64,000 nucleotides of DNA from an uncultured Aquimarina sp. (lineage in GTDB: Bacteria; Bacteroidota; Bacteroidia; Flavobacteriales; Flavobacteriaceae). The notes under the pieces are model-generated. The model ran no database searches, had not been told where the DNA came from, and was given only the letters and a program-made list of their open reading frames with translations. Each line of letters begins with the position of its first letter. Position 1 is the stretch's first letter. This document shows, in pieces, positions 4,192 to 63,370 of this stretch. The DNA lies in NCBI GenBank assembly GCA_947498935.1, contig CANMMM010000006.1, positions 128,060 through 192,059 of the forward strand, written 5' to 3'. Made by a program: the position numbers and the translations under genes.

Positions 4192-4437
4192 GAACTCATC
4201 TTGACTTTTTCTTTTCTCTAAAAAATGACTAAAATTCTCATGTACTTCGTCACTTTTATATAATCTTTAGTATTGAAGTGGTTTAAACTTTTTTCAATTT
4301 GCTATAAAAACGATCTTTTGCACTCAAATTTTGTAATTTTTGAGTTCCGTAGCGCTGCTATGCAACTAAAAAATCACTGTATTTGATCACAAAATCTTAG
4401 TTTTTCGCTGAAATCAAAAAAGTTTGAATCACTTCAT
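4192..4437. repeat. MITE-like repeat: a type-2 terminus fragment (4192-4255) plus one complete ~164-bp copy (4274-4437)
   Basis: The complete copy starts gaagtggtttaaacttttttcaatttgctataaaaacgatcttttgcactc and ends gaaatcaaaaaagtttgaatcacttc, giving ~20-bp terminal inverted repeats. The core gagttccgtagcgctgctatgcaac is shared with the other copies. Confidence 0.85.
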
Positions 4438-4572
4438 TGTAATGTTTCTAAAATTACCTTACAAGATCAGAAGTAAATACATTCGTGGTTCAAAACAAAA
4501 AGGTACGATACTATTGTAGTCTCTTTCTATAGTGATGAGAAGAAGTTTACATCACTTCATGCTCATATTTTT

Positions 4573-5772
4573 CTATAGGATTAATAGATTGATATCCCTG
4601 TAGGATAAATCAAACCAATCAGCCACGGATTTATTAGTTAGAATACCGTGATAAAAATACAATCCGTTTTTCAATCCTTTATCGAATCGCACAGTATTTT
4701 CGATACCACCTTCTTCTCCGATTTGTAGTAAATAGGGGGTAAAAATATTGCTAATTGATAACGAAGACGTTTTGGCATATTTAGAGGGGATATTAGGCAC
4801 GCAATAATGTACCACTCCATGTTTGATAAAGGTAGGGTGATCATGTGTAGTGACCTCACTGGTTTCGAAGCACCCTCCCATATCGATACTGACATCGATA
4901 ATAATAGCTCCAGTTTTCATACGTTCTACCATGGTTTCAGACACAATAATTGGCGAACGATTTTTTCCTCTTACTGCGCCAATCACTACATCACATCTTC
5001 TCAATGCTTTTAATAGATTTTTGGGCTGTATAGTAGAGGTGTATAAAGGCCTTCCTACATTGGTTTGCAAACAGCGTAGTTTGGTAATAGAATTATCAAA
5101 CACTTTTACATTAGCACCTAGGCCAATTGCAGATCGAGCAGCAAACTCGCCTACAGTACCAGCACCTACGATTACTACTTCTGCGGGTGGCACGCCACTA
5201 ATGTTTCCGAGCATGAGTCCAGATCCTATGGTGGTGTTGCTCATCAATTCAGAGGCGATCAGTACTGCAGCTGTTCCTGCTATTTCACTCAGAGCCCTTA
5301 CAGCTGGGTATGCACCATCTACATCTCTAATAAATTCGAAACCAAGAGCAGTAATTCTTTTTTTAGCCAATTCCTGAAAAAAGTCTTTGGACTGTGTTTT
5401 TAGTTGTAGAGCAGAGATCAATACAGTTTGTGGATTGATATGTGCTAATTCTTCTAGCGATGGCGGTTCTACTTTTAGGATAATCGGACACCCAAATACT
5501 TTGGTACTATCGTTAGTTACTTCTGCACCAGCTTCGCTATATTCACGATCTGTAAAACTAGCTCCTAATCCTGCATTGGCCTCGATCATTACTCGGTGTC
5601 CATGTGCTGTGAGTGCAGCTACTGCATCGGGTGTAAGACATACGCGTTTTTCTTGATAACTAGTTTCTTTGGGGATCCCTATAAATAGTTTTCCTTTTTG
5701 TCGTGTAACTTCTATCATTTCCTCCTGTGGTAGGAGTTGCTCTTTGGTAAAAGGAGAAGATGGTTGATTCAT
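4573..5772 (-). CDS. ald: Alanine dehydrogenase family NAD-dependent dehydrogenase
   Basis: 399 aa. IGIPKETSYQEKRVCLTPDAV, Rossmann motif VVIVGAGTVGEFAA, and a C-terminal VHYCVPNIPS typical of the AlaDH/PNT family. Confidence 0.75.
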   Translation of the reverse strand: MNQPSSPFTKEQLLPQEEMIEVTRQKGKLFIGIPKETSYQEKRVCLTPDAVAALTAHGHRVMIEANAGLGASFTDREYSEAGAEVTNDSTKVFGCPIILKVEPPSLEELAHINPQTVLISALQLKTQSKDFFQELAKKRITALGFEFIRDVDGAYPAVRALSEIAGTAAVLIASELMSNTTIGSGLMLGNISGVPPAEVVIVGAGTVGEFAARSAIGLGANVKVFDNSITKLRCLQTNVGRPLYTSTIQPKNLLKALRRCDVVIGAVRGKNRSPIIVSETMVERMKTGAIIIDVSIDMGGCFETSEVTTHDHPTFIKHGVVHYCVPNIPSKYAKTSSLSISNIFTPYLLQIGEEGGIENTVRFDKGLKNGLYFYHGILTNKSVADWFDLSYRDINLLIL

Positions 5773-5939
5773 TTGTTGTGTGTAATTCTGCTTCTCAAAT
5801 TACGAATAAAAAAGTAAAGTATGCAAATTATACTTTTGTTTGATTCTATAAACTCAATTATTTGCAAAACTCATGCTTTGAAGTGATTTAAACTTCTTTA
5901 TATACAAAGTAGCCATCTACTAGCTGTAATAATAAAAAA

Positions 5940-6461
5940 TCATCGAAGTTTATTCCACCATGTTCTTTTATGAGTTTTAGAGAGCGTCGTTAATTCAGAC
6001 AAATCTACCCCATTTATGATATCAAAAAGTTTATTCCGTATGATGTAATTTAGCATCAGGATGATACCAGTAATTGGAATTAAGACATAAATATCTTTGT
6101 AATCGATCATATCAGAATCTTCTACCACAATCGATAGTAATTGAAATGTATATAGGGCTATGGGTACCATAATGACCATATACCACCAATGCTTACAAGT
6201 AAAAAACCAAATGAGAAACAAGAGTAGGGGAATGAGTTTGCCTAATAAAACCCACGTAAATACATTGATATTTTCATAGTACCTACTTTGGTATACAAAA
6301 AATGAACTTTCCCAAATCGCTGCATTTGGGAATAGTTCATTCAAATAAAATAAAAAGGGAATTGTAGCAATTAAAAAAGCAATACAATTAGCCATTTTTA
6401 GGCTTCTTAATTTTTGGTGTGTGAACTGACCTTTGTTCGATTCTTTTAGTAGCTTTTTCAT
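5940..6461 (-). CDS. Hypothetical multi-pass membrane protein
   Basis: 173-aa ORF with about 4 hydrophobic segments. No family recognised. Confidence 0.45.
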   Translation of the reverse strand: MKKLLKESNKGQFTHQKLRSLKMANCIAFLIATIPFLFYLNELFPNAAIWESSFFVYQSRYYENINVFTWVLLGKLIPLLLFLIWFFTCKHWWYMVIMVPIALYTFQLLSIVVEDSDMIDYKDIYVLIPITGIILMLNYIIRNKLFDIINGVDLSELTTLSKTHKRTWWNKLR

Positions 6462-6690
6462 GATTTGTGGTTGAATAAAGGGAATGGGTGTTTAGTTCAT
6501 ATATACCGAATGCATAAAACATACTTACTAAAATTGTCGTCGTGATTTTCATTATATATAGGATTTATTAATTTTAGTGTAGTCATATATTCGCTTTGAT
6601 GATACAATCTTTCAATTATAAAATTCATAATCTATTAGAAAGTGGGTTTAAAACATTTTTTATAAAGAAATGTTTACTCTTTATTATATA

Positions 6691-6988
6691 GAAGTGGTTT
6701 ACTCTTTTTTAATTTCAGCAAAAAACAAAGATTTTGTGATCAAATACAGTGATCCTCTTGTTGCATAGCACTGCTATGGAACTCAAAAAACTGTAAAACT
6801 TGAGTGCAAAAGATCGTTTTTGTAGCAAATTGAAAAAAAAAAGTTCAAATCACTTCATTAGCTAAAAGCGAAGATTTGTAATCCTAGGGAAGCGATTTTT
6901 TATTGCATAGCAATGCTACGGAACTCAAAAATTGCAGAATTAGGATGCAAAAGATCGTTTTATAGCTAATTGTAAAAAAGTATACACG
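6691..6988. repeat. MITE-like repeat: one complete copy (6691-6856, inverted relative to 4274) and an adjacent partial copy (6869-6988)
   Basis: gaagtggtttactcttttttaatttcagc...gttgcatagcactgctatggaactcaaaaa...caaattgaaaaaaaaaagttcaaatcacttc. The second unit repeats the core attgcatagcaatgctacggaactcaaaaatt. Confidence 0.85.
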
Positions 6989-7093
6989 TCTTATATTTAA
7001 GTACTAGTAAAATCATTTTAAACTTACTTAATTATTCTTGTAAGAAAAAGCGTAGAGACCTTAATTTTTTGTTTTCTAGTGATTTCGGTAGGA

Positions 7094-7498
7094 TTATCTC
7101 ATAAAAAGTACTCTTTTACCATCGCTTTGTATATCAATTTGTATTTGAGTTGCATGGATAGGTAGTAAGTTGGTAATTTTCTGAGGCCATTCTATAAAAA
7201 TCCATGCATCTGTATCTATATATTCTTCGTATCCAATATCATATACTTCTTCTTCATCTTGTATACGATAAAAATCAAAATGATAAATAATGTTGTCTGT
7301 ACCTTTGTACTCATTCACTAGAGAGTACGTAGGGCTACTAATTGTATCTTGTACTCCTAATTGTTTGCAGATTTCTTTGATCAGAGTTGTTTTTCCAACT
7401 CCCATAGGGGCATCAAATAAGATAATTTTATAGGGGCAATGGGTTATAATTTCGTTGGCAATAGTAGCTAGGTCATTTAGGGCATAGGTGAATTTCAT
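7094..7498 (-). CDS. tsaE: tRNA threonylcarbamoyladenosine (t6A) biosynthesis ATPase TsaE
   Basis: 134 aa with a P-loop GVGKTTLIK followed by SPTYSLVNEY and HFDFYR, the YjeE/TsaE signature order. Confidence 0.85.
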   Translation of the reverse strand: MKFTYALNDLATIANEIITHCPYKIILFDAPMGVGKTTLIKEICKQLGVQDTISSPTYSLVNEYKGTDNIIYHFDFYRIQDEEEVYDIGYEEYIDTDAWIFIEWPQKITNLLPIHATQIQIDIQSDGKRVLFMR

Positions 7499-7657
7499 AC
7501 TCGTTATATTCTATATATATATTCCATATTTGGAATAAATATAACATTAGTAATTGCTTTATAAGTACTAAAGTTGAGTAATTTTTAGTGTTATTTTTAA
7601 AGTATTTATTTAGATAAGTATGTTTATTGTTTTAAAATCAGTTATTTGTTTTTTATT

Positions 7658-7743
7658 GCGTTAGGGATAGGAGCGGCATCCTTTTTTGTTTTTTTTCAAA
7701 CAAAAAAGATATAGCGTATAGCCCGACCCTTGTGGTAACGCCC
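7658..7743 (-). repeat. REP-like element, subtype A (copy R2, inverted)
   Basis: gcgttagggataggagcggcatccttttttg...caaaaaagatatagcgtatagcccgacccttgtggtaacgccc. It lies 11 nt downstream of the minus-strand stop at 7754, in sense orientation. Confidence 0.85.
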
Positions 7744-7753
7744 ATACTAAGCA

Positions 7754-8593
7754 TTAAGTGTTACTAAAAGATGTGATGGTAGTGATTAAAGTATTGGTAT
7801 CTACATCGATAAGATCTTCTAGTTCTTCTGAGCTAGTTTTTGATTCCATATCTTTTTGGTAAGATACTAATTTCCAGTGAGATTGATCATATTCTAATGC
7901 GGTTAAATTTTCGATCCAATCTCCAGAATTTAGATAGGTACAAGATCCGTTTTTAGTTGTTTTAGTTGCAATTTGGGGTTGATGTATATGACCGCAAACC
8001 ACGTAATCATAGCCATTGTCAATAGCTAGCTCTGCAGCAACTTGCTCAAAATCATTAATGTATTTGACAGCTTTTTTGACACTGTTTTTAATTTTTTTAG
8101 AAAGCGAGAATTTTTCTTTCCCCATTTTTTCTAATATCCAATTGATGCATTGATTGAGTACAATAAGCATATCATAGCCCCACCCACCAAGTTTGGCTAA
8201 CCATTTTGCATTTTGTATGGATGCATCAAACACATCGCCATGAAAAATCCATGCTTTTTTAGCATTGTCTAAGGTAAGCACCACTTTATCTACTAACTCA
8301 AAGTTACCCATCTGGGTATCACTAAATTTTCGAAGCATTTCATCGTGATTTCCTGTCACATATATGACTTTAGTCCCTTTAGTGGACAGGGAAATGATTT
8401 TTTTGATAATTTTGAGATGTGGTTTAGGAAAATACCGTTTTCTAAATTGCCAAATATCTATGATATCACCATTTAGAATCAATGTTTTGGGCTTTATACT
8501 ATTTAAATAATGTAGTAATTCTTTTGCATGACAACCGTATGTACCTAAATGTATATCTGAAATAACTACTAGCTCGACAGGTCGTTTCTTCAT
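7754..8593 (-). CDS. lpxH: UDP-2,3-diacylglucosamine diphosphatase-like metallophosphoesterase
   Basis: Calcineurin-like motifs in order: SDIHLG, NGDIIDIW, GNHDE, GHIH. 279 aa. Confidence 0.7.
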   Translation of the reverse strand: MKKRPVELVVISDIHLGTYGCHAKELLHYLNSIKPKTLILNGDIIDIWQFRKRYFPKPHLKIIKKIISLSTKGTKVIYVTGNHDEMLRKFSDTQMGNFELVDKVVLTLDNAKKAWIFHGDVFDASIQNAKWLAKLGGWGYDMLIVLNQCINWILEKMGKEKFSLSKKIKNSVKKAVKYINDFEQVAAELAIDNGYDYVVCGHIHQPQIATKTTKNGSCTYLNSGDWIENLTALEYDQSHWKLVSYQKDMESKTSSEELEDLIDVDTNTLITTITSFSNT

Positions 8594-8756
8594 ACTTACG
8601 ATTGTTTCTTACAAATTAACTACCTAATAGTTACTAAATATTTAACTGGTGATGAGAAGATTGTTACGAATTCTTACAAAAAGGAGTGATGTATTATCAT
8701 ACTGTTATGTGAATATTGTTTTAAGGTATATAGATTATCTAAAAGGCTTTAGATAC

Positions 8757-10485: not shown

Positions 10486-11556
10486 ATGGCAGGAAATACG
10501 TTTGGAAACCTTTTTAAGGTAACTACTTTTGGAGAATCACATGGAGTAGCTATTGGAGGTGTTATTGATGGATGCCCAGCTGGGGTAGCTATAGATTTAG
10601 AGGCGATACAAGCAGAATTAGATCGTCGTAAACCAGGGCAATCTGCTATAGTTACACAACGCAAGGAACCAGATACAGTAGCTTTTTATTCAGGTATTTT
10701 TGAAGGGGTGACTACGGGGACTCCGATTGGTTTTGTAATTAAAAATGCAAATCAAAAGTCGAAAGACTATTCACATATAAAGGATTCATACCGACCTTCG
10801 CATGCAGATTATACCTATGATCAGAAATACGGAATTAGAGATTACAGAGGCGGAGGACGTTCTTCTGCTAGAGAAACTGCCAGTAGAGTAGTGGCTGGTG
10901 CTATCGCTAAACAAGTATTAGATTCATTAGGAATTACATTCAATGCCTATGTTAGTGGTGTAGGTACTATACAATTAGGAGTGCCTCATACAGCATTAGA
11001 CCTGTCCCTTACAGAAAGTAATATTGTACGTTGTCCAGATCCAGCAAAAGCTGCTGAAATGGAGCAATATATAAAACAGATTCGTAAAGAAGGAGATACA
11101 GTAGGAGGGATTGTAAGTTGTGTAATCAGTGGAGTACCCGTTGGGCTTGGAGAACCAGTTTTCGATAAACTACACGCAGAATTAGGAAAAGCAATGCTAT
11201 CGATCAATGCTGTTAAAGGATTTGAATACGGTAGTGGTTTTGAAGGAGCTGCCCTTAAAGGAAGCGAGCATAATGATCTGTTTAACACAGACGGAACTAC
11301 TAAAACCAATTTATCCGGAGGTATCCAAGGAGGAATCTCTAATGGGATGGATATATATTTTAAGGTGGCTTTTAAACCTGTAGCTACGATCATGCAGGAT
11401 CAAGATACCATTGACAAAGAAGGAAATATCGTTACGATGCAAGGAAAAGGAAGACATGATCCATGTGTAGTACCAAGAGCAGTTCCTATTGTCGAAGCTA
11501 TGGCCGCACTAGTTATTGCAGATTATTGGTTATTGAATCGCACTATCAAAAAGTAA
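10486..11556 (+). CDS. aroC: Chorismate synthase
   Basis: [20 protein letters not shown]...[11 protein letters not shown]...[13 protein letters not shown]. The ATG at 10486 is preferred over the in-frame TTG at 10483 used by the ORF track. Confidence 0.95.
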
Positions 11557-11585
11557 ATTTTATAGCCATATCATACGTTAATATT

Positions 11586-11617
11586 ACGGTAATCTTAGTA
11601 AGATTGCCGTTTTTTTG
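11586..11617 (+). terminator. Rho-independent terminator after aroC
   Basis: Stem acggtaatctt / aagattgccgt (one G-U pair) followed by a T7 run. Confidence 0.7.
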
Positions 11618-11654
11618 TATTTAATTTATATCTTCGGCGGTTTGCGTTCTACAA

Positions 11655-11697
11655 TAGAATACTATTCTAAGTAGTATTCAGTACGTTGAGTATTCTA
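11655..11697. promoter_or_regulatory. Candidate operator: palindrome tagaatactattcta plus two further AGTATTC half-sites upstream of the DAACS transporter gene
   Basis: Read directly: tagaatactattcta (11655-11669), gtattc (11674-11679), gtattc (11690-11695). Confidence 0.3.
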
Positions 11698-11777
11698 ATA
11701 GGAGAGCAAACAAAAGACGTTTCATAACTAATCATACAAAGAGGAAGCTTTTTCCTTAAAAAACTTAGCAACTTTTC

Positions 11778-13100
11778 ATGAAGAAATTAGCATTGCACTG
11801 GCAGATTTTAATCGGAATGGTAGTAGGTGTACTATTCGGTTTTTTGATGACTCAATTTACGTGGGGTAAGGTATTTGTAGGCAATTGGATCAAACCTTTA
11901 GGAACTATTTTTGTCAATCTCCTAAAATTGATAGCAGTTCCACTAATTCTAGCATCGCTCATCAAAGGAATTTCTGATTTAAAAGATATTTCTAAATTCA
12001 AACGAATAGGAGGGAGAACTATCATTATTTATATCCTTACTACCGTCGTAGCGATCACCATTGGTTTGGTATTAGTTAATATATTGAAACCGGGGGATGG
12101 AATTACGACGACTACGATAGAGAAATTGACCACTGCATATGCGGGTAACTCTAAAATTTCTGAACGTATTGCCGAAGCAGGCCGACAGCAACAAAGTGGG
12201 CCGTTACAATTTGTAATAGATATGGTGCCGCAGAATGCTGTAGCGGCAATGAGTAATAATAAGCTGATGTTACAAGTTATTTTCTTCGCTATTTTTCTAG
12301 GAATAAGTATGCTGTTGATCAAAGAAAAACAAGCAGCTCCCTTAAAACAATTTTTTGATAGCTTAAATGAAGTGGTACTTAAAATGGTAGATTTGATTAT
12401 GCTATCAGCACCTTATGCAGTTTTTGCCTTATTAGCTAATGTAGTAGTCACCTCTGATGATCCTGATATTTTAATAGCCTTGCTGCGATATGCAGGAGTG
12501 GTATTTGTGGGGCTAGCTCTAATGATTGCAGTATATTGTATATTGGTCATGCTTATCACCAAAAAATCACCAATTTGGTTTTTAAAACAGATCAGCCCCG
12601 CACAATTATTGGCTTTTTCTACCAGTTCTAGTGCAGCCACATTACCTGTTACGATGGAGCGTGTAGAAGAACACATCGGGGTGGATAAAGAAGTATCTAG
12701 TTTTGTACTGCCAGTAGGAGCTACGATTAATATGGATGGTACGAGTCTGTATCAAGCTGTAGCTTCTGTATTTATTATGCAAGTATTATGGCCAGAAGGG
12801 CTTACATTCAGTAATCAGATTACGATTGTAGTAACGGCATTATTAGCCTCTATAGGCTCCGCTGCTGTACCTGGTGCAGGAATGGTAATGCTCGTAATCG
12901 TATTAGAAGCTATCGGTTTTCCCTCAGATAAATTACCCATTGGTTTAGCCCTCATTTTTGCAGTAGATAGACCTTTAGATATGTTGCGTACTACTGTAAA
13001 TGTTACAGGAGATGCCACAGTGTCTATGTTGGTCGCTAAATCTGTAGGTAAATTAGGAACTCCAAAAGTAAAGGAGTGGGATGACCATTATAAACAATAG
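11778..13100 (+). CDS. Dicarboxylate/amino acid:cation symporter (DAACS, GltP-like)
   Basis: 440 aa, multi-pass. Motifs SSSAATLPVTM, GATINMDGTSLYQ and DRPLDMLRTTVNVTGD are typical of the SDF/DAACS family. Confidence 0.85.
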   Translation: MKKLALHWQILIGMVVGVLFGFLMTQFTWGKVFVGNWIKPLGTIFVNLLKLIAVPLILASLIKGISDLKDISKFKRIGGRTIIIYILTTVVAITIGLVLVNILKPGDGITTTTIEKLTTAYAGNSKISERIAEAGRQQQSGPLQFVIDMVPQNAVAAMSNNKLMLQVIFFAIFLGISMLLIKEKQAAPLKQFFDSLNEVVLKMVDLIMLSAPYAVFALLANVVVTSDDPDILIALLRYAGVVFVGLALMIAVYCILVMLITKKSPIWFLKQISPAQLLAFSTSSSAATLPVTMERVEEHIGVDKEVSSFVLPVGATINMDGTSLYQAVASVFIMQVLWPEGLTFSNQITIVVTALLASIGSAAVPGAGMVMLVIVLEAIGFPSDKLPIGLALIFAVDRPLDMLRTTVNVTGDATVSMLVAKSVGKLGTPKVKEWDDHYKQ

Positions 13101-13221
13101 CGAGCATCCATCTTAATAAATTGCTCATTAATATAATACACGCCGTTTATAGTGCGTGTATCCTCCTTAATAAAAAGTAACTAATAGGTACAATCAAGTA
13201 CTAAAAAAGATTCGGTAGCTT

Positions 13222-14673
13222 ATGGATACAAAGCACCAACCACATGCTGCTATGCATGCAGTATACGATACAGAAAGTTTTAGAACAATAGGTCAGGAAC
13301 TCATTGAGTTACTAGCTGATCATTTGGATGCGGTACAGCAGCAAGCCAAGCCTGTACTTTCGTATCGAAGCCCAGAAGAAGAACTTGCATTTTGGAAAGA
13401 AGATTTTAAAACAGAGGCTTCTACAGAGATGCTTTCTTTTTTTCGTACAATACTAGCACGCTCTATCTCTGTGCACCACCCACATTACATGGGGCATCAA
13501 GTATCTGTACCTGCACTCATAGGTAGTTTATCGGGTCTCGTATCAGATGTTCTGAGTAATGGTACAGCTGTTTACGAAATGGGAATGGCTTCTAATGCGA
13601 TTGAAAAAGTAGTAACTGATTTTGTAAATAAACAATTAGGGTATGATACTACTAGTGGAGGGTTTCTAACCTCTGGTGGTACATTGGCTAATCTTACAGC
13701 ATTATTAGCAGCACGTAGTGCTAAAGCTCCTACGGCTGTATGGGAAAATGGACATACAGATCAATTAGCTGTACTGGTATCTGAAGAAGCACATTATTGT
13801 ATCGATCGAGCAGCTAGAATTATGGGATTAGGAACACAAGGGATTATAAAAATACCTGTAGATGATCAATTTCAGATGCAAACTAGCATGTTAGAATCTA
13901 AGTTAGAAGAAGCTAAACAACAAGGGCTGCATGTCATTGCACTTATTGGTTGTGCCTCTTCTACAGCTACAGGTGCGTATGATGATCTCACAGCATTAGC
14001 AGCCTTTGCGAAGCAGCATAATATATGGTTGCATGTAGACGGTGCACATGGAGGGGGAGTTATTTTCTCAGAAAAATATGCGCATTTGGCTCAAGGAATT
14101 GAGCAAGCAGACTCTGTAGTCATTGATTTTCATAAAATGCTGCTCACCCCTGCATTAACCACTGCTTTAGTATTTAAAAATCATAAAAACGCCTATGCTA
14201 CCTTCCAGCAAAAGGCACAATATCTCTGGAATGCGCAAGAATCTACAGAATGGTACAACTCTGGTAAACGTACATTCGAATGCACCAAACTGATGATGGG
14301 GATGAAGGTATATAGCATTCTAAAAATGCATGGCAAAGAAGTTTTTGGCAAAAATGTAACATACTTATATGATATTGCCAAAACGTTTGCTACTCAATTA
14401 CAAGACCATCCAGATTTTGAATTATTGACTTTTCCACAAGCCAATATTGTTAATTTTAGATTCATCAATTGCGATTCCACAAAAATAGATTATATCAATG
14501 ATCTGATACATGAACATATCATTGCAGAAGGACAATTCTATATCGTACAAACCACCGTACAATCCAAACGATTTTTAAGAGTAGCGATTATGAATCCTTT
14601 GACTAAAGCAGCTGATTTTACTACATTATTAGCACATATTATAACGATATATAAAACCTCAATACAGGCGTAA
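13222..14673 (+). CDS. PLP-dependent group II amino-acid decarboxylase
   Basis: 483 aa. SGGTLANLTALLAAR, HVDGAHGG, and DFHKML as the PLP-lysine motif. Confidence 0.8.
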   Translation: MDTKHQPHAAMHAVYDTESFRTIGQELIELLADHLDAVQQQAKPVLSYRSPEEELAFWKEDFKTEASTEMLSFFRTILARSISVHHPHYMGHQVSVPALIGSLSGLVSDVLSNGTAVYEMGMASNAIEKVVTDFVNKQLGYDTTSGGFLTSGGTLANLTALLAARSAKAPTAVWENGHTDQLAVLVSEEAHYCIDRAARIMGLGTQGIIKIPVDDQFQMQTSMLESKLEEAKQQGLHVIALIGCASSTATGAYDDLTALAAFAKQHNIWLHVDGAHGGGVIFSEKYAHLAQGIEQADSVVIDFHKMLLTPALTTALVFKNHKNAYATFQQKAQYLWNAQESTEWYNSGKRTFECTKLMMGMKVYSILKMHGKEVFGKNVTYLYDIAKTFATQLQDHPDFELLTFPQANIVNFRFINCDSTKIDYINDLIHEHIIAEGQFYIVQTTVQSKRFLRVAIMNPLTKAADFTTLLAHIITIYKTSIQA

Positions 14674-14980
14674 AAATCATATAAGACCAATGTTTAGGCA
14701 ATTTGTGACACCTATATATATATAGACATTTATCTATTATCATTTGATTATCAGAATGTTATTTTTTGATATACACAAACGGAGTTTACAGTTCACAAGG
14801 ATTGTATGATTTTGTGTAACTATTTATAAATCATTTATTTATAGTCGATATGTATTGTGTCGTGATGACTGCATAAAATAGGGGGAAAACCCCTATTTGA
14901 TTTCTAGTGAAACTCCCTTTAATTTGTATCATAAATATAAATACCTTTGAATCAAACACTAACACTTAAACACACACGTC

Positions 14981-57249: not shown

Positions 57250-57447
57250 AGGTACGGGTTTTAATAAGCGCCTAAAGTAACAAGAATAATTCGCTTTGTA
57301 GCGGGGTAGTGAGAGAGAACTTTTCCACAGTTTATTAAGAGAAGGAAGGAATAATTGTAGTTATAACGATGTAGGAGAAAATGGTATAATATAAGGAGAG
57401 AAAGTGTAGTTATTTAGGGGTTAGACATAAGCCAGAATAACCAAAGT

Positions 57448-57792
57448 CTATAAATCAATAAGGTATTTTATTCTAAAATAGCATTCTTTAGCTAATGGTT
57501 CTAACGATTCTCCATTGGGTGTAATAGTATAATCAAGTGATCTGTTCATAAAAGAAGCATATGTTTCTTCCAAATAATGATTTGTTTTTTCTTTTGGTAT
57601 ATGCATAAGCTTATAGATAATTTCCAAAATTGCAAGATGATGCATACTTAGTCCATCTAACCCTATACTTTCTAATCCGTACAATAATTGACTATGTTTA
57701 AGATCTTGTACTATTAGATCAATGATTATTTGTTCATTTTCCATAAAACTTTCAAATTTTATTTCTGAAATCCACCTTTCAAATTGTGACAC
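57448..57792 (-). CDS. Hypothetical protein at the left edge of the AT-rich island, divergent from the HTH-methyltransferase operon
   Basis: 114-aa ORF with an ATG start. No motif recognised. Its composition matches the island rather than the flank. Confidence 0.45.
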   Translation of the reverse strand: MSQFERWISEIKFESFMENEQIIIDLIVQDLKHSQLLYGLESIGLDGLSMHHLAILEIIYKLMHIPKEKTNHYLEETYASFMNRSLDYTITPNGESLEPLAKECYFRIKYLIDL

Positions 57793-57806
57793 CTTACGAT
57801 AAAAAA

Positions 57807-57874
57807 TTCCGATTATCAGAACAAATATACCGAAATAAAGACAAAATAAAAACTAATTATTCAGAAAATCGGAA
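57807..57874. promoter_or_regulatory. Inverted repeat in the divergent promoter region (candidate operator for the small HTH protein)
   Basis: ttccgattatcagaa (57807-57821) and ttcagaaaatcggaa (57860-57874) are reverse complements at 13 of 15 positions. A third related ctgattat lies at 57883-57890. Confidence 0.4.
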
Positions 57875-57920
57875 TAAAATATCTGATTATGTAGATTTAT
57901 AACCATAAAAACAGACAAAA

Positions 57921-58139
57921 ATGACTGATTTAGGTCTATATCTTTCTAGAAAATCTGTCAACAGATCTGATGTTTCTCGAAAAACAGGTATTAGTAAAAC
58001 CCGTCTTAGCGAATTGGCAAATAACAAGAAAACCAAATTAAGAGCAGATGAATTATATTTAATAGCACTTGCTATTGATGTTGATCCTTGTGAAATATTT
58101 GAAGAAGTTTGTAAAGAATTAAAACTTGTCGAGAAATAA
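57921..58139 (+). CDS. Small XRE-family HTH protein (R-M controller-protein-like position)
   Basis: 72 aa. SRKSVNRSDVSRKTGISKTRLSELANNKKTKLRADELYLIALAI fits the HTH_3 pattern. The stop is 2 nt before the methyltransferase ATG. Confidence 0.8.
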   Translation: MTDLGLYLSRKSVNRSDVSRKTGISKTRLSELANNKKTKLRADELYLIALAIDVDPCEIFEEVCKELKLVEK

Positions 58140-58141
58140 CT

Positions 58142-59257
58142 ATGGATATTTTAATTGAAGACAAATTATCATTGCATACGAATTTAAATAATGTTTCCAA
58201 TACTCCTCTAGGGTGCGATATTTTTAGTGGAGCAGGAGGGATGAGTCTTGGTGCAGAAATGGCGGGAATAAATATTTCTTTTGCTGTAGAAAATGACAAA
58301 TATGCTGCGGATACTTTTATTAAGAATCATAGCTCGTCAAAAGTTATTGTAGAAGATATAAGAAATGTTAAGCCTACAGAATTAATTTCTAAAAACCCTT
58401 TTGTACTATTCGGAGGACCGCCTTGTCAAGGCTTTTCGTTATCAAACACAGTTACTAGAAATTCTAAAAATGAAAAAAATAGTTTGTTTGAGGAATTTTT
58501 AAGATTTATCGAAGAGCTTGAACCACAATGGTGTGTTTTCGAAAATGTTGAAGGTTTTAGAAGTTTTCAAAAAGGTAAAGTTGTAAAAATTTTAAAAAAA
58601 CGATTAGAAGATTTAGGATATACTGTGAATTTTGATGTTTTAATAGCATCTGATTATGGAGTTCCTCAAGACAGGAAACGTTTTTTTATGATTGGAAATA
58701 AAAATGGAATAAAATTTAAATTTCCTCAGCCATTAACTAATAAATTCACAGTAGCAGATGCAATTTCAGATTTACCAAATTTACAGAATGGTGATTTTAT
58801 TGAATCTCTACCTTATAATGGTTTGGCTAATAACGAATTTGCTAATACTATGAGAGCAAAATCAAACTTCTCTATGCAGAATTATGTTTCTAGAAATAGA
58901 GATTACGTATTGGAGAGATATAGGCATATAGGACAAGGAGAAAACTGGAAAGCTATACCAGATGAATTAATGGCAAATTATGCTAACAAAAACAATTGTC
59001 ATTCAGGAATATATAAGCGCTTAAACTCTGAAAAACCATCGGTAGTTATTTCTAATTACAGAAAAAATATGTTGATACACCCTTTTGAAAACAGAGGTTT
59101 ATCAGTTAGAGAAGCTGCAAGATTACAAAGTTTTCCTGATGATTTTATTTTTCAAGGTACATTAATGTATATGCAACAACAAATAGGTAACGCTGTTCCT
59201 CCTTTATTAGCTAAAGCACTATTTGACCAAATTAATGAAATGACATATAATGGCTAA
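58142..59257 (+). CDS. DNA (cytosine-5)-methyltransferase
   Basis: All canonical m5C motifs in order: I DIFSGAGGMSLG, IV GGPPCQGFS, VI FENVEGF, VIII QDRKRFF, IX RLQSFPDDF, X GNAVPP. Confidence 0.95.
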   Translation: MDILIEDKLSLHTNLNNVSNTPLGCDIFSGAGGMSLGAEMAGINISFAVENDKYAADTFIKNHSSSKVIVEDIRNVKPTELISKNPFVLFGGPPCQGFSLSNTVTRNSKNEKNSLFEEFLRFIEELEPQWCVFENVEGFRSFQKGKVVKILKKRLEDLGYTVNFDVLIASDYGVPQDRKRFFMIGNKNGIKFKFPQPLTNKFTVADAISDLPNLQNGDFIESLPYNGLANNEFANTMRAKSNFSMQNYVSRNRDYVLERYRHIGQGENWKAIPDELMANYANKNNCHSGIYKRLNSEKPSVVISNYRKNMLIHPFENRGLSVREAARLQSFPDDFIFQGTLMYMQQQIGNAVPPLLAKALFDQINEMTYNG

Positions 59258-61379
59258 TAACAGAAAAGATTCTATAACGTTTAATTTTGATGTCAGCGCA
59301 TATAGGTTACTAGGTAGAGAACTTATTACAGATAGAATAACTGCTTTATTTGAGTTAGTTAAAAATGCTTATGATGCAAATGCTGAAAATGTTTCAGTTG
59401 AATTCCAAAATATTAATCCATTAAGTACCGATTCCAAAATAATTATTAAAGATGATGGTATTGGAATGCAATTTTCTGATATTAAAAATAAATGGATGGT
59501 AATTGGTACAAGTAGTAAAAGAAGAGAGCGACTTTCTCCACCACCACATAGAAGAAAAGTGTCGGGAAAAAAAGGTGTTGGCAGGTTTGCAGTTGATAAA
59601 TTAGGAGAAAAATTAATATTAAAAACTAAAAAAAAGGAAGACAAACAATTATTATGTTTGGAAACTGATTGGTCACATTATTCTGGATTAGAGAATTCTC
59701 AATTTAAATTAAACTTTGAAGATGAAAAACCTTTTTTTACAGATGTTGAAAATAGTTATTGGTATGAAGATTCACTTAAAAATAATCAAGGAACAATACT
59801 AGAAATTTCTTTGGTAAGTGAGATATGGACAAAAGATGATATAAATAGGGCATACAAAGAATTATCTAAATTAGTATCTCCAAATACAGATATTAAAAAA
59901 ACATATCCATTTAATATTACTATTAAAGCCCCTTATGAAGGGTTTGAAAATAAAATTGTAAAGACACAATTAATAGATTTTGCTACAGAGAAAATTCAAT
60001 TATCATATAATATTGATAAAGAGACACAAGAAATATTACAGTATAACAAAATTGAAAAGTACTTGTCTATAAAAAATGTTCCGAAAAGACCTTGTGGTTT
60101 ACTTAAATTAAACATTTATTATTTTAACGAGGAAGACAAAGCTAGATATAGAAAACATTTTGGAACAACATTAGATGGTATAAAAATTTATAGAGATGGC
60201 ATTATTACAACACCATTTGCCGAATATGTTTCAGATAGAAATAAGAAAAAAGATATATTAGGAATTGATAAGAGAAGGTGGTCTGGTTTTTTCGATAGGC
60301 TCTCTAATAGGGATTTGTTAGGTTACGTTGAAATTACAGATGAAAATAATCCGAATATTATAGAATCAACTAATAGACAGGGTTTTGTAGATAATGAGGC
60401 TTGGGGGGAATTACATTCTTTTGTTATAGAGCAAATTAGTCAATTAGAACAATATTTGAGTAATTTAAAAAAGACTCAGAGAAAAGCAACTAAATCAAAT
60501 TTAGGAGGAACTAACAAAGATTTAAAAGAACTAAAGAAAGATATTGCTTTAATAAAAAAAGATGCGTCTCCTGTAGTCAAAGAAAAGCTAAAGAATATTG
60601 AAGCTAACTTAGGGAAAATACAAGGTAGTGTAAATAAAAGTATTAAGGAGTATGCTAAATTAGAGAAGGAAACCAAACAAAAAGAGAACCTCTTTTTTAG
60701 CCTTGTTTCTCTTCAAACTTATGCTGCTATGTTCTCTCATATGACAAAGCATACTATAGGTCATATTTTAACAAGTGCGGAATATTTTAATAATAATTAC
60801 CCTAATCCAAAATTAGAAAATAGGTTTATTAAAATATCTAAGAATATTTATAATGAAATGCTTAAACTCAGAAAAGGTGTAGATTTTATGCTTAAATACG
60901 CAAAGTCAGATACTGAGTTTGAAGAAATTAATTTAAAAGACCTTGTAACTAATCTATTTAATGATATCTATTATGATAGGTTTTTAAAAGAAAATATAAA
61001 TACAGAAATAGCAATTAATGAAGAACTAATTTTAAATTATAATAGAAAATCTATTGAAGATATTTTTGATAATTTAATTTCAAATTCTATAAAAGCATTA
61101 AAAGGAATTGATAATAAACACATTAAATGTAGTAGTATAACAACTAAGAATGATTTAACAATTTTATTCTCTGATAATGGAATAGGTATTAAAGAGGAAG
61201 ATAGATTTAGGATTTTCGACATTTTCTTTACTAAAACATCTGAAGATGGAGGAGCTGGAATGGGACTTTATATGGTTAAAACTAGAGTAGAAGCAATGCA
61301 AGGAAATATTGAGGTAGTTGAAAATGAGTTCAAACCTAATGGAGCTACTTTAAAAATCACATTACCATTTAAAAAATAA
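59250..61379 (+). CDS. Dual-GHKL protein: N-terminal MORC/MutL-like ATPase module, a middle region, a coiled coil, and a histidine kinase (DHp plus HATPase_c)
   Basis: N-terminal Bergerat motifs: ELVKNAYDA (res 35-43), DDGIGM (68-73), GKKGVGRFA (106-114). A K/E-rich coiled coil spans about 400-480. H-box-like FSHMTKHTIGH (495-505). HK boxes: N DNLISNSIKA (607-616), G1 DNGIGI (642-647), F FDIFF, G2 GGAGMGL (667-673). The start overlaps the MTase stop by 8 nt. Confidence 0.8.
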   Translation: MANNRKDSITFNFDVSAYRLLGRELITDRITALFELVKNAYDANAENVSVEFQNINPLSTDSKIIIKDDGIGMQFSDIKNKWMVIGTSSKRRERLSPPPHRRKVSGKKGVGRFAVDKLGEKLILKTKKKEDKQLLCLETDWSHYSGLENSQFKLNFEDEKPFFTDVENSYWYEDSLKNNQGTILEISLVSEIWTKDDINRAYKELSKLVSPNTDIKKTYPFNITIKAPYEGFENKIVKTQLIDFATEKIQLSYNIDKETQEILQYNKIEKYLSIKNVPKRPCGLLKLNIYYFNEEDKARYRKHFGTTLDGIKIYRDGIITTPFAEYVSDRNKKKDILGIDKRRWSGFFDRLSNRDLLGYVEITDENNPNIIESTNRQGFVDNEAWGELHSFVIEQISQLEQYLSNLKKTQRKATKSNLGGTNKDLKELKKDIALIKKDASPVVKEKLKNIEANLGKIQGSVNKSIKEYAKLEKETKQKENLFFSLVSLQTYAAMFSHMTKHTIGHILTSAEYFNNNYPNPKLENRFIKISKNIYNEMLKLRKGVDFMLKYAKSDTEFEEINLKDLVTNLFNDIYYDRFLKENINTEIAINEELILNYNRKSIEDIFDNLISNSIKALKGIDNKHIKCSSITTKNDLTILFSDNGIGIKEEDRFRIFDIFFTKTSEDGGAGMGLYMVKTRVEAMQGNIEVVENEFKPNGATLKITLPFKK

Positions 61380-61385
61380 TAAATT

Positions 61386-61982
61386 ATGACTGTAACTTTT
61401 GTAATTATAGATGATAATGAAGAAATAAGGGAACACGCTTTATTATTTACTCTTGAAGATAAATACCAAAATATCATTTTTTTTTCCAATCCAAGTGAAG
61501 GGTTACAATACATAAAAGGTAATTTAGATATAAATTTAATAGTCTTATTAGACATCGAATTTTCTGATAATGACAAAAAGAATGGACATATACTTCTTGA
61601 AGAAATCTATAACGCATCTGCTTTAATACCTGTTATTTTATGGAGCGGTATAAATGAAACTAAAGAAGAGTTCAGTGATTTTATTAATAATCAGGCTTTT
61701 GGTTTTTTGAGCAAAACTTCTACCATAAAAGAATCAATGGTAATAATTGATAAAGCATATAATCACTTAAAAAATAGTTTAGATAATACGATTGAAGATT
61801 GGATTATTAGTAATGAAACAGACAAAGAAAAACCTATTTATTTAACTGCTGATGGCGAAACTTATTCTTTAAATGATATTCTAAAAGAAATTAGACTACA
61901 AACGCCCATTGGTAAAGAGTTTTCATCAAAACTAAACGCATTGACCATAGATTTATTATTACGTAAAAAAGAGAATTTATAA
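61386..61982 (+). CDS. CheY-like receiver (REC) domain protein with an ~85-aa uncharacterised C-terminal extension
   Basis: The acidic pair D9-D10 (IIDDNE), D56 (VLLDIEF), S87 (ILWSG) and K110 (FLSKT) fall at the CheY D12/D13, D57, T87 and K109 spacing. No DNA-binding output domain recognised. Confidence 0.75.
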   Translation: MTVTFVIIDDNEEIREHALLFTLEDKYQNIIFFSNPSEGLQYIKGNLDINLIVLLDIEFSDNDKKNGHILLEEIYNASALIPVILWSGINETKEEFSDFINNQAFGFLSKTSTIKESMVIIDKAYNHLKNSLDNTIEDWIISNETDKEKPIYLTADGETYSLNDILKEIRLQTPIGKEFSSKLNALTIDLLLRKKENL

Positions 61983-62584
61983 TGGTTGATGTTATTGGGT
62001 TATTTGATAATGAAGATGATTCTTTAGGGCTTTTTTTTCATCTTTGCTATGAAGATTTAATAAGCTATTTAGAAAATAATCCTATAAATATATCTTATTT
62101 TAATAGCCGTAGGCTTAATGAAATTTCTATCTCATTAATAACTGATTCGTTAGGTAAATTTATAACTTTAGCATATTCTCACGGTAGTGAAACAGAATTA
62201 TTAAGAGAAAATATTCCATACATTTCTACAGAAGTTAATATCGATAAATTTTCTGATTCTTTTTTTTATACCTGCTCTTGTCATACTGGAAAAGTTTTAG
62301 GAGAAAAATTAATAAATAATGGAGCCTTAAACTATATTGGTTATCGAGATAAATTTAAAGTTTGGGGATTCAATATGAATCCCTACATTGATTGTGCTAA
62401 TTATGGAATTAAACTTTTCTTCGAAAACCATTGCACAAATGATATTATTACTTTAATGAAGGAAAAGTATACTGAACATATCGATAATTACGAAAATGAT
62501 ATTTTTGGTGCAGCTATGTTGGTTTCAAATAGAAATAGCCTTGTTAGTTTTGGAAATAACATTTCAATTAACGATTTAAGTTGA
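61982..62584 (+). CDS. Hypothetical 200-aa protein with a candidate caspase/CHAT-like (clan CD) His-Cys dyad
   Basis: The ATG overlaps the upstream TAA (TAATG). A hydrophobic strand then H-G (FITLAYSHGSE, H67) and a hydrophobic strand then C-x-x-G (FFYTCSCHTG, C100) lie 33 residues apart. This is the order and context seen in caspase/legumain/CHAT folds. The CDS call is solid; the fold assignment is motif-level inference only. Confidence 0.55.
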   Translation: MVDVIGLFDNEDDSLGLFFHLCYEDLISYLENNPINISYFNSRRLNEISISLITDSLGKFITLAYSHGSETELLRENIPYISTEVNIDKFSDSFFYTCSCHTGKVLGEKLINNGALNYIGYRDKFKVWGFNMNPYIDCANYGIKLFFENHCTNDIITLMKEKYTEHIDNYENDIFGAAMLVSNRNSLVSFGNNISINDLS

Positions 62585-63115
62585 AATTTTAAAAAAAAAG
62601 ACTTTGTAAAATCAGAGTTTAAAAACTTCAATGCTGAAAGAGTTACTAGATTTAGCATCTTCATCATCGGAATATCCAGCAGCAGTAAAGTATTGTTTAA
62701 AAAGTTCAGGGTATGATTGGGGCAGATAATATTGTACAACGAGCTGCTTAAGTTCTTGTATAATTATGTAAAATAGAGCCCGCGTTTTTTACCCAGATGA
62801 AGCGTTTGCAAAATGGCTTCAGAAAACTCTCGTGAAAACAATATAAAAGTAAGGTTTATAAGGCTAGTTTAAAATAATCTTACTACAATATAGCGACTGC
62901 GGCGTACATTTGGGAAATTTTATGCTATTGCGAAAACCTTCACGAGAATCACGTAAAAATTTTTATCACGTATATTTTATCGAATACGCGATTTATAAAC
63001 TACCTAGCAGAATATTTCAACAATGGAATTATGATGTGATGACCCGAGTAGCTACGATTACTAGGATATTTTACATAGTATTACATTATAACTACTAATG
63101 TGGCAGGCGTGTCGC

Positions 63116-63209: not shown

Positions 63210-63370
63210 ACTTCAATAAACACATTTGTACTATAATTTATATTATGTAAAATAGAGTTATTCAGAACCTCCTTTTCTTTCTTATTTTATCCCACTGCAC
63301 AATAGTTACAAAAAATACTAGTTTAATTATTTTTTGTAAATTAGAATGCGATTCGTCGCAATCAGACATT

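Follow-up and report, generated by a model that had tools for sequence, protein, structure and literature searches.

What does a bacterial receiver protein do when the gene that overlaps its own encodes a caspase-like protein? The question is raised by two open reading frames (ORFs) near the end of a 64,000-nucleotide stretch of DNA from an uncultured Aquimarina sp. (the window, i.e., the whole stretch that was analysed), which a preliminary description, made from the letters alone, had presented as a stand-alone receiver protein followed by a small candidate effector of clan CD cysteine peptidase topology. We find that the two ORFs are the last two of five tightly packed genes on the + strand (ORF listing), the others encoding an XRE-type regulator, a C5 cytosine DNA methyltransferase and a soluble sensor kinase, and that this cassette is best interpreted as a methylase-kinase-receiver defence system of a new form, with a protease as effector. 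The pattern formed by the two ORFs and their conserved residues is far beyond chance.

Both ORFs lie where they were first placed, on the + strand (ORF listing and direct reading), and the last base of the TAA stop codon of the receiver gene (61980-61982) is also the first base of the next start codon, ATG, which gives the overlap TAATG. The relevant features of the pair are as follows:

61386-61982, + strand: 198-residue response regulator, receiver with a conserved C-terminal domain of unclassified type (Pfam, AlphaFold, homologues)
61551-61553, + strand: codon of Asp56, predicted phospho-acceptor (GAC, read directly; 100% in 49 homologues)
61776-61979, + strand: C-terminal domain of the receiver protein, residues 131-198, candidate coupling or output domain (AlphaFold, conservation)
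61982-62584, + strand: 200-residue caspase-fold (clan CD-like) predicted cysteine protease, candidate effector (AlphaFold, Foldseek against the PDB, BFVD)
62180-62182, + strand: codon of His67, catalytic His candidate in the motif SHG (CAC, read directly; 162/162 relatives)
62279-62281, + strand: codon of Cys100, catalytic Cys candidate in the motif C-x-T-G (TGT, read directly; 162/162 relatives)

Predicted fold and conserved residues of the 200-residue protein

The three motifs singled out in the preliminary description are present in the 200-residue protein, i.e., AYSHGSE (with His67), YTCSCHTG (with Cys98 and Cys100) and ALNYIGY, and the clan CD topology proposed from them is borne out by the predicted structure. 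The AlphaFold2 model, computed from a 21-sequence alignment, has a predicted local distance difference test (pLDDT) score of 94 and a predicted template-modelling (TM) score of 0.92, and places His67-Gly68 directly after the strand formed by residues 60-65 and Cys100 directly after the strand 93-98. The best match of the model in a Foldseek search of the PDB is the SAVED-CHAT protein 8tl0 (E 4e-5, TM score 0.63), and all 27 matches at E ≤ 1e-3 are SAVED-CHAT, caspases, separase or gingipains, with TM scores of up to 0.65; caspases 6, 11, 4, 8, 3 and 1, CED-3, separase, and gingipains R and K are among them. Matches in the viral structure library BFVD are metacaspases and metacaspase-like proteins, clostripain and C14 proteins. 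Model and fold search together give a caspase-hemoglobinase fold, and our prediction is a caspase-type protease of clan CD fold and very small size; as modelled the protein is minimal, and carries no recognition domains.

The kinship with caspases is visible at the fold level only. Sequence searches with the protease family against PDB chains return nothing relevant, none of 71 family members matches the Pfam models CHAT (PF12770) or Peptidase_C14 (PF00656) at E ≤ 10, and Peptidase_C25 gives a weak Pfam match in 4 of the 71 (best E 0.0021). The family itself is large. Twenty relatives, each at least 47% identical, came from a word-indexed search; all have about 200 residues and are unannotated, save for one UniRef entry named 'CHAT domain-containing protein'. 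An exhaustive profile search extends the family to 736 representative clusters (50% identity) at E ≤ 1e-3, 104 of which score E ≤ 1e-30; its members are nearly all stand-alone proteins of 200-215 residues.

Conservation was assessed in an alignment of 162 relatives, mostly representatives of 50%-identity clusters. His67, Cys100 and Gly120 are invariant (162/162) and Gly68 is present in 161 of the 162. The candidate catalytic residues named in the preliminary description are therefore conserved with respect to His67 and Cys100, but not with respect to Cys98, which is variable and falls below the 80% conservation threshold; the same pattern is seen in a 71-sequence alignment. Since Cys98 is not conserved, Cys100 is the likely nucleophile, and from the fold and the His67/Cys100 pair we infer proteolytic activity. 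A zinc site composed of Cys22, Cys98, Cys100 and Cys138 was considered and dropped, since Cys98 does not reach 80% in the wider family and Cys22 and Cys138 are conserved at only 84-86%.

Two further residues bear on possible specificity. In caspase-fold enzymes the residue that ends strand 1 helps to build the S1 pocket, and is Arg in caspases and Asp in metacaspases and paracaspases. In the 200-residue protein the strand 3-8 is followed by Asp9 and Asp12, which are conserved in 96% and 92% of the 162 sequences, respectively, and which by this rule would suggest a preference for basic P1 residues.

A receiver with a conserved C-terminal domain

The 198-residue protein matches Pfam Response_reg (PF00072) with E 4.5e-8 and 33.7 bits against a cut-off of 30.2. 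Its AlphaFold model (pLDDT 84.8) retrieves about 200 solved receiver domains, and nothing else, in the fold search, and the five CheY signature positions reported for it, Asp9, Asp10, Asp56, Ser87 and Lys110, are all present (Pfam, AlphaFold, alignment). Across 49 diverse homologues, Asp56 is conserved in 100%, Asp10 in 98% and Asp9 in 84%, and position 87 is Ser or Thr in 100%.

The C-terminal extension that was noted at the outset proves to be a conserved segment of about 80 residues. In the AlphaFold model the receiver fold is followed by a long helix, a β-hairpin (150-153, 159-161) and the helices 162-170 and 174-192, and residues 131-198 have pLDDT values of 86-95. In the homologue alignment this segment is at least as conserved as the receiver domain, with Glu137, Trp139, Leu166, Arg170 and Gly176 invariant, and its median isoelectric point (pI) is 5.3. 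No credible match to it exists in Pfam or among PDB sequences, and no winged helix is detected in the receiver protein by AlphaFold model, Pfam or PDB sequences; the modelled topology of the C-terminal domain differs from that of the classical winged helix. The earlier statement that the receiver has no recognisable DNA-binding output thus holds, as absence of evidence and not as proof.

Kinase, methylase and regulator

The receiver is not stand-alone, as had been assumed. A gene for a 709-residue kinase lies directly upstream, and those for the C5 methyltransferase and the XRE regulator lie further up:

57921-58139, + strand: 72-residue XRE/Cro-type helix-turn-helix (HTH) regulator, C-protein-like, first gene of the operon (Pfam HTH_26 7e-10, HTH_3 3e-6)
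58142-59257, + strand: 371-residue C5 cytosine DNA methyltransferase (Pfam DNA_methylase 8e-72 over the full model length; PADLOC MTase_II 5e-119)
59250-61379, + strand: 709-residue soluble sensor kinase with MORC-like GHKL ATPase, conserved middle, DHp helix and catalytic ATP-binding domain (Pfam, solved histidine kinase cores, alignment)
59340-59675, + strand: N-terminal GHKL (paraMORC-type) ATPase domain of the kinase, proposed sensor (Pfam, NF050001, conserved motifs)
60738-60740, + strand: codon of His497, predicted phospho-accepting His in FSHMTKH (invariant; in the DHp-aligned stretch)

Pfam assigns HATPase_c_3 to kinase residues 31-142 (1.4e-25) and HATPase_c to residues 600-708 (1.8e-24), and residues 464-705 match the solved histidine kinase cores of ZraS, SrrB and HK853 with E values of 1e-11 to 1e-15. 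In 31 homologues, His497, Asn608, Asp642, Gly646 and Gly667-Gly672 are invariant and Gly644 is conserved in at least 90%, the N, G1, F and G2 boxes being invariant or nearly so. The same homologues show invariance of Glu35, Asn39, Asp42, Asp68, Gly70, Gly72 and Gly106-Gly111 in the N-terminal GHKL domain, i.e., in three ATP-binding motifs. This N-terminus is nearest to the BbrUII/HgiDII restriction-enzyme family (NF050001 4e-20; PADLOC REase_II 7e-14). The middle of the protein, residues ~283-382 (DGIKIYRDGIITTPFAEY ... GIDKRRYSGFFD ... TNRQDFVDN), is conserved to about the same degree as the ATPase motifs and matches no family; it could be a MORC-like transducer or a DNA-contact module. Neither transmembrane nor nuclease domains are detected in the kinase, which, with its gene directly upstream, is likely the kinase of the receiver; its invariant His497 and motif sets, together with Asp56, Asp10 and Ser/Thr87 of the receiver, point to a competent phosphorelay.

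Searches with Pfam, NCBIfam and PADLOC detect no nuclease domain in any gene of the cassette, and thus no cognate endonuclease of the kind found in classical type II restriction-modification (R-M) systems; the PADLOC matches are limited to the methyltransferase, REase_II in the kinase N-terminus and the HTH protein. An HTH gene occupies the equivalent position in the related loci L003, L008-L010 and L019-L021. In the loci L005, L006, L012-L015, L017 and L018 the kinase is 42-44% identical to the window copy and the C5 methylase only 26-30%; to judge from these values, the methylase either diverges much faster or was exchanged, possibly with a change of target sequence.

Conservation of the cassette

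We compared 21 loci anchored on the protease or the receiver, one viral contig, and 42 metagenome loci anchored on a distant protease sub-clade (28-40% identity to the window protein); upstream linkage was counted in the 59 loci with at least 300 nucleotides of upstream DNA. In all but one of these 59 loci the protease gene comes immediately after the receiver gene, and 57 of the 58 pairs overlap. A kinase precedes the receiver in 50 loci, and a C5 methyltransferase directly precedes the kinase in 36, the remainder being cut by contig ends. The exception is L067 (7001-7635), a 5'-truncated caspase-like remnant that has lost the His motif and lies without kinase, receiver or methylase; it adjoins a 796-residue protein and a 644-residue leucine-rich-repeat protein with a putative ATPase domain (from the translations), both of which resemble the products of other defence genes. 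In L005 (7380-8004) the receiver gene is split, and in the near-identical L006 (7381-8004) it is intact; the kinase is split in L010, a Mesonia metagenome-assembled genome (1320-3509). These apparent frameshifts in metagenome copies are either assembly errors or signs of inactivated cassettes.

Cassette hosts are mainly Bacteroidota. A search with the kinase (tblastn) also found homologues of 23-29% identity over 95-98% of the length on plasmids, three of which are of interest; a tblastn search for the protease in plasmid sequences gave no match. The Deinococcus plasmid has the order HTH, N6 methyltransferase, kinase, receiver-like protein, HNH, and the Bacteroides plasmid has the order kinase, receiver-like protein, HNH, N6 methyltransferase. 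The caspase-like gene therefore takes the place that the HNH nuclease has in related cassettes. On the Stenotrophomonas rhizophila plasmid CP031730.1 (L022), two ORFs that lack annotation come after Dcm and a GHKL kinase. The ORF at 7093-7731 of this locus is a receiver with the C-terminal domain of the window receiver (hhalign E 6e-5), and the ORF at 7743-8423 encodes a 226-residue protein with SHG and SCGT, a distant relative of the caspase-like family that aligns to its core (hhalign probability 93.7%). This locus extends the cassette to Gammaproteobacteria and to a plasmid.

Mobility and surroundings of the cassette

The composition profile places the entire cassette inside an island of low GC content:

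57400-62750, no strand assigned: low-GC island that contains the whole cassette (composition profile)

The GC content is 26-30% between ~57.4 and 62.7 kb, about 41% in the upstream flank and 32-34% downstream, and the stretch is thus a horizontally acquired island. Searches around it found no tRNA genes and no bounding direct repeats, and the number of promoter and terminator sites in a scan did not exceed that in shuffled sequence. Each related locus has different flanking genes, among which are transposases, resolvases, a Type ISP R-M enzyme and one phage tape-measure gene. The viral contig L025 (IMG/VR UViG_3300030393_000016; 4202-8606, 10552-14901) carries a complete methylase-kinase-receiver-protease cassette about 2 kb from a 1449-residue phage tape-measure-like gene; since this contig is predicted to be viral, some copies of the cassette travel on phages or prophages.

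A gene for a Vsr mismatch endonuclease directly follows the caspase-like gene in 19 related loci (L014, L015, L018, L019, L026-L028, L031, L038, L040-L046, L048, L051 and L052), which indicates that 5-methylcytosine is made constitutively; tblastn finds no significant similarity to Vsr anywhere in the window.

Two observations concern the immediate surroundings. A 114-residue ORF (57448-57792, - strand) lies inside the island and points away from the HTH gene; Pfam, NCBIfam, PADLOC and PHROGs contain no model that matches it. It may be part of the cassette, and small minus-strand ORFs are found at the equivalent position in L020 and L021. Downstream of the cassette, the exact 16-nucleotide repeat ATTATGTAAAATAGAG occurs in direct copies at 62763-62778 and 63242-63257 and inverted at 63067-63085, within a stretch of about 900 nucleotides in which all ORFs have at most 83 residues; the repeat could have been left behind by an insertion, or could be a small repeat element or a site of regulation.

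Proposed mechanism and alternatives

The five-gene cassette is probably a module for defence against phages or other foreign DNA, of the two-component kind represented by the Pseudomonas system Ambrosia and by the paraMORC kinases, in which the HNH nuclease has been replaced by a protease. We infer the defence role, its trigger and the coupling of receiver and protease, and place the protease under the control of the receiver from gene order alone. The methylase would mark host DNA, and the MORC-like ATPase clamp of the kinase would sense a cue linked to infection, most plausibly DNA without the methyl mark. The kinase would then autophosphorylate on His497 and the phosphoryl group would be transferred to Asp56 of the receiver. 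The phospho-receiver would switch on the His67/Cys100 protease, either directly via its C-terminal domain or by raised transcription of the operon, and cleavage of host or phage proteins by the protease would abort the infection.

For the last switch, three points favour direct activation. The receiver and protease genes overlap almost universally. The C-terminal domain of the receiver is strongly conserved, acidic and unlike DNA-binding domains. Furthermore, caspases are activated by induced proximity and receivers dimerise when phosphorylated, so that, e.g., a phosphorylation-driven dimer of the receiver could pair two protease monomers. The fully specified form of this proposal, in which a receiver dimer phosphorylated on Asp56 docks the protease via the C-terminal domain and activates it by proximity, while the kinase clamp reads DNA methylation, with proteolytic abortive infection as the outcome, is put forward tentatively, as one possible scheme.

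The main rival is purely transcriptional control, in which the phospho-receiver would bind DNA via its C-terminal domain and induce the operon, and the protease, physically uncoupled from the receiver, would be active once made. Precedent comes from Ambrosia, for which such control has been proposed, whose receiver AbrC is described as combining REC with a winged helix, whose expression is induced upon infection according to reporter genes inserted in the cluster, and whose defence is abolished by the D60A exchange in AbrC (bioRxiv 10.1101/2025.09.30.679545). The C-terminal domain of the window receiver is not significantly similar to an HNH-linked receiver, and what can be added on the side of transcriptional control is a faint, non-significant resemblance of its last helix to the C-terminus of that protein. 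Against this, searches of Pfam and of PDB sequences assign the domain to no DNA-binding family, its arrangement of helix, hairpin and two helices is not that of the classical winged helix, and the median pI given above is acidic. Since the gene of the receiver overlaps that of the protease in 57 of 58 loci, both are made from a single transcript, together with the kinase, and the operon already has an XRE regulator of its own. Control by transcription alone appears rather unlikely.

A different role for the caspase-like protein would be that of a regulator that turns the cassette on or off by processing the XRE repressor, the methylase, the kinase or the receiver, the true output being dependent on methylation or located elsewhere. 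This would fit a minimal protein without recognition domains, and it would fit the absence of a dedicated gasdermin- or Csx30-like substrate gene from the ~60 loci. It is nonetheless improbable, given that the protein sits in the position of the HNH nuclease of homologous cassettes, i.e., the typical effector slot, and that no other candidate effector is conserved in the cassette. About as improbable is a selfish addiction or epigenetic module, in which loss of the methylase would leave host DNA unmarked, the kinase would fire and the protease would kill the segregant: the strict linkage of the methylase, the mobility of the island, the constitutive methylation indicated by Vsr and the selfish behaviour of R-M systems discussed in this context by Bellieny-Rabelo et al. 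(PMC8011034) speak for it, but its sensing logic is the same as that of defence and hence not exclusive, and the only tested relative, Ambrosia, protects against phages.

Several results weigh against the defence reading itself and the protease assignment on which it builds. The 200-residue protein matches no Pfam, NCBIfam, PADLOC or PHROG model, and comparison of its family with human caspase-3 by hhalign gives a non-significant probability of 1.5%, the sole local match, likewise non-significant, placing His67 on the SHG histidine of the caspase. The lack of a dedicated substrate gene counts here as well. Position 110 of the receiver is Lys or Arg in only 67% of the 49 homologues. The models PF19191 and PF19192, which stem from the 2021 work of Bellieny-Rabelo et al., do not match the window kinase or receiver at E ≤ 1, and these two proteins are putative homologues of AbrB and AbrC of Ambrosia. 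Finally, Ambrosia still restricts phage that has been methylated beforehand (bioRxiv 10.1101/2025.09.30.679545), so that sensing of unmethylated DNA is unsupported by the sole experimental relative.

Significance

Caspase-type proteases are emerging as executioners in bacterial immunity and, to our knowledge, the trigger in all known cases is a nucleotide second messenger, target RNA or a STAND-type sensor. The present family, with its 736 clusters at 50% identity, is unrecognised by Pfam, NCBIfam, PADLOC and PHROGs, and each of its members consists of no more than a caspase core, which is linked to a histidine kinase, a receiver and a DNA methylase. If the reading is correct, phosphorelay would join the known controls of caspase-fold enzymes, the Ambrosia/paraMORC scaffold would prove to be a general chassis with exchangeable effectors, and the 200-residue protease, with an on-switch of simple chemistry, could serve as a tool. 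The fully specified scheme of direct activation, if true, would provide the first link of R-M-style marking of self and non-self, two-component signalling and caspase-type proteolysis. The cassette also makes testable what bacterial MORC-like ATPases sense.

Comparison with known systems

The use of two-component signalling in anti-phage defence has a counterpart in Detocs, which reportedly employs a histidine kinase and receivers (Rousset et al., Cell 2023). Detocs is said to have a buffer receiver and a receiver fused to an ATP-degrading nucleoside phosphorylase, and no methylase. The likeness to the window cassette is histidine kinase/receiver signalling in which a receiver domain acts upstream of an effector that is an enzyme.

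Enzymes of the BbrUII/HgiDII type partner with C5 methylases. They are matched by the first ~130 residues of the window kinase, and the ATPase domain is all that is common to both; the nuclease part is replaced in the window kinase by a histidine kinase transmitter.

A closer relative at the level of domain architecture was described by Bellieny-Rabelo et al. in 2021, i.e., soluble kinases composed of HATPase_c_3, a DHp domain of a new type (HEF_HK) and HATPase_c. In 644 regions these kinases adjoin small receiver-like Response_reg_2 proteins of no known output as well as C5 methylases, and HNH_2 or Vsr is close by (PMC8011034). A paraMORC origin was proposed for the HEF_HK kinases, and no caspase-like partner was described (PMC8011034). 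The window shares with these systems a kinase composed of HATPase_c_3, DHp and HATPase_c beside a small receiver, with the C5 methyltransferase upstream. The differences are the lack of a match of the window proteins to PF19191 and PF19192 at E ≤ 1 and the match of the window receiver to the classical PF00072.

CHAT and caspase-like proteases serve bacterial immunity as effector or relay. SAVED-CHAT of type III CRISPR, the TPR-CHAT protein of Craspase and the proteases that activate bacterial gasdermins share with the 200-residue protein the caspase-hemoglobinase fold, in which one strand leads to His-Gly and the next to Cys. These proteases have 400-700 or more residues, carry SAVED or TPR sensor domains, and are activated by cyclic oligoadenylates or target RNA. 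The window protein, in contrast, is a bare core of 200 residues that has no sensor domain and whose gene is linked with those for a His-Asp phosphorelay and a methylase.

The closest layout is that of Ambrosia (AbrR/A/B/C/D) from Pseudomonas, which consists of an XRE regulator, an N6-adenine methylase, a HATPase kinase, a REC protein with winged helix and a type IV-like HNH nuclease; it occurs mainly in Pseudomonadales and protects against phages, a protection that depends on each of the five genes and on the receiver Asp (bioRxiv 10.1101/2025.09.30.679545). Compared by description, the window cassette has the same five-gene order (XRE regulator, methyltransferase, HATPase kinase, receiver, effector), and the plasmid loci of Ambrosia layout encode kinases that are homologous to the window kinase over 95-98% of the length at 23-27% identity. 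Ambrosia has an N6-adenine methylase, an HNH effector and a winged-helix receiver, whereas the window cassette has a C5 methylase, a caspase-fold effector and a receiver output of unclassified type. Our literature search found no paper that describes a protease-effector variant of the methylase-kinase-receiver cassette. The expectation in the preliminary description that a caspase-like protease controlled by a REC protein would be new is thus upheld for the effector, for which we found no report, but not for the methylase-kinase-receiver scaffold, which has been published (PMC8011034) and of which the HNH relative Ambrosia has been tested; the novelty therefore lies in the effector, and not in a receiver-linked immune module as such.

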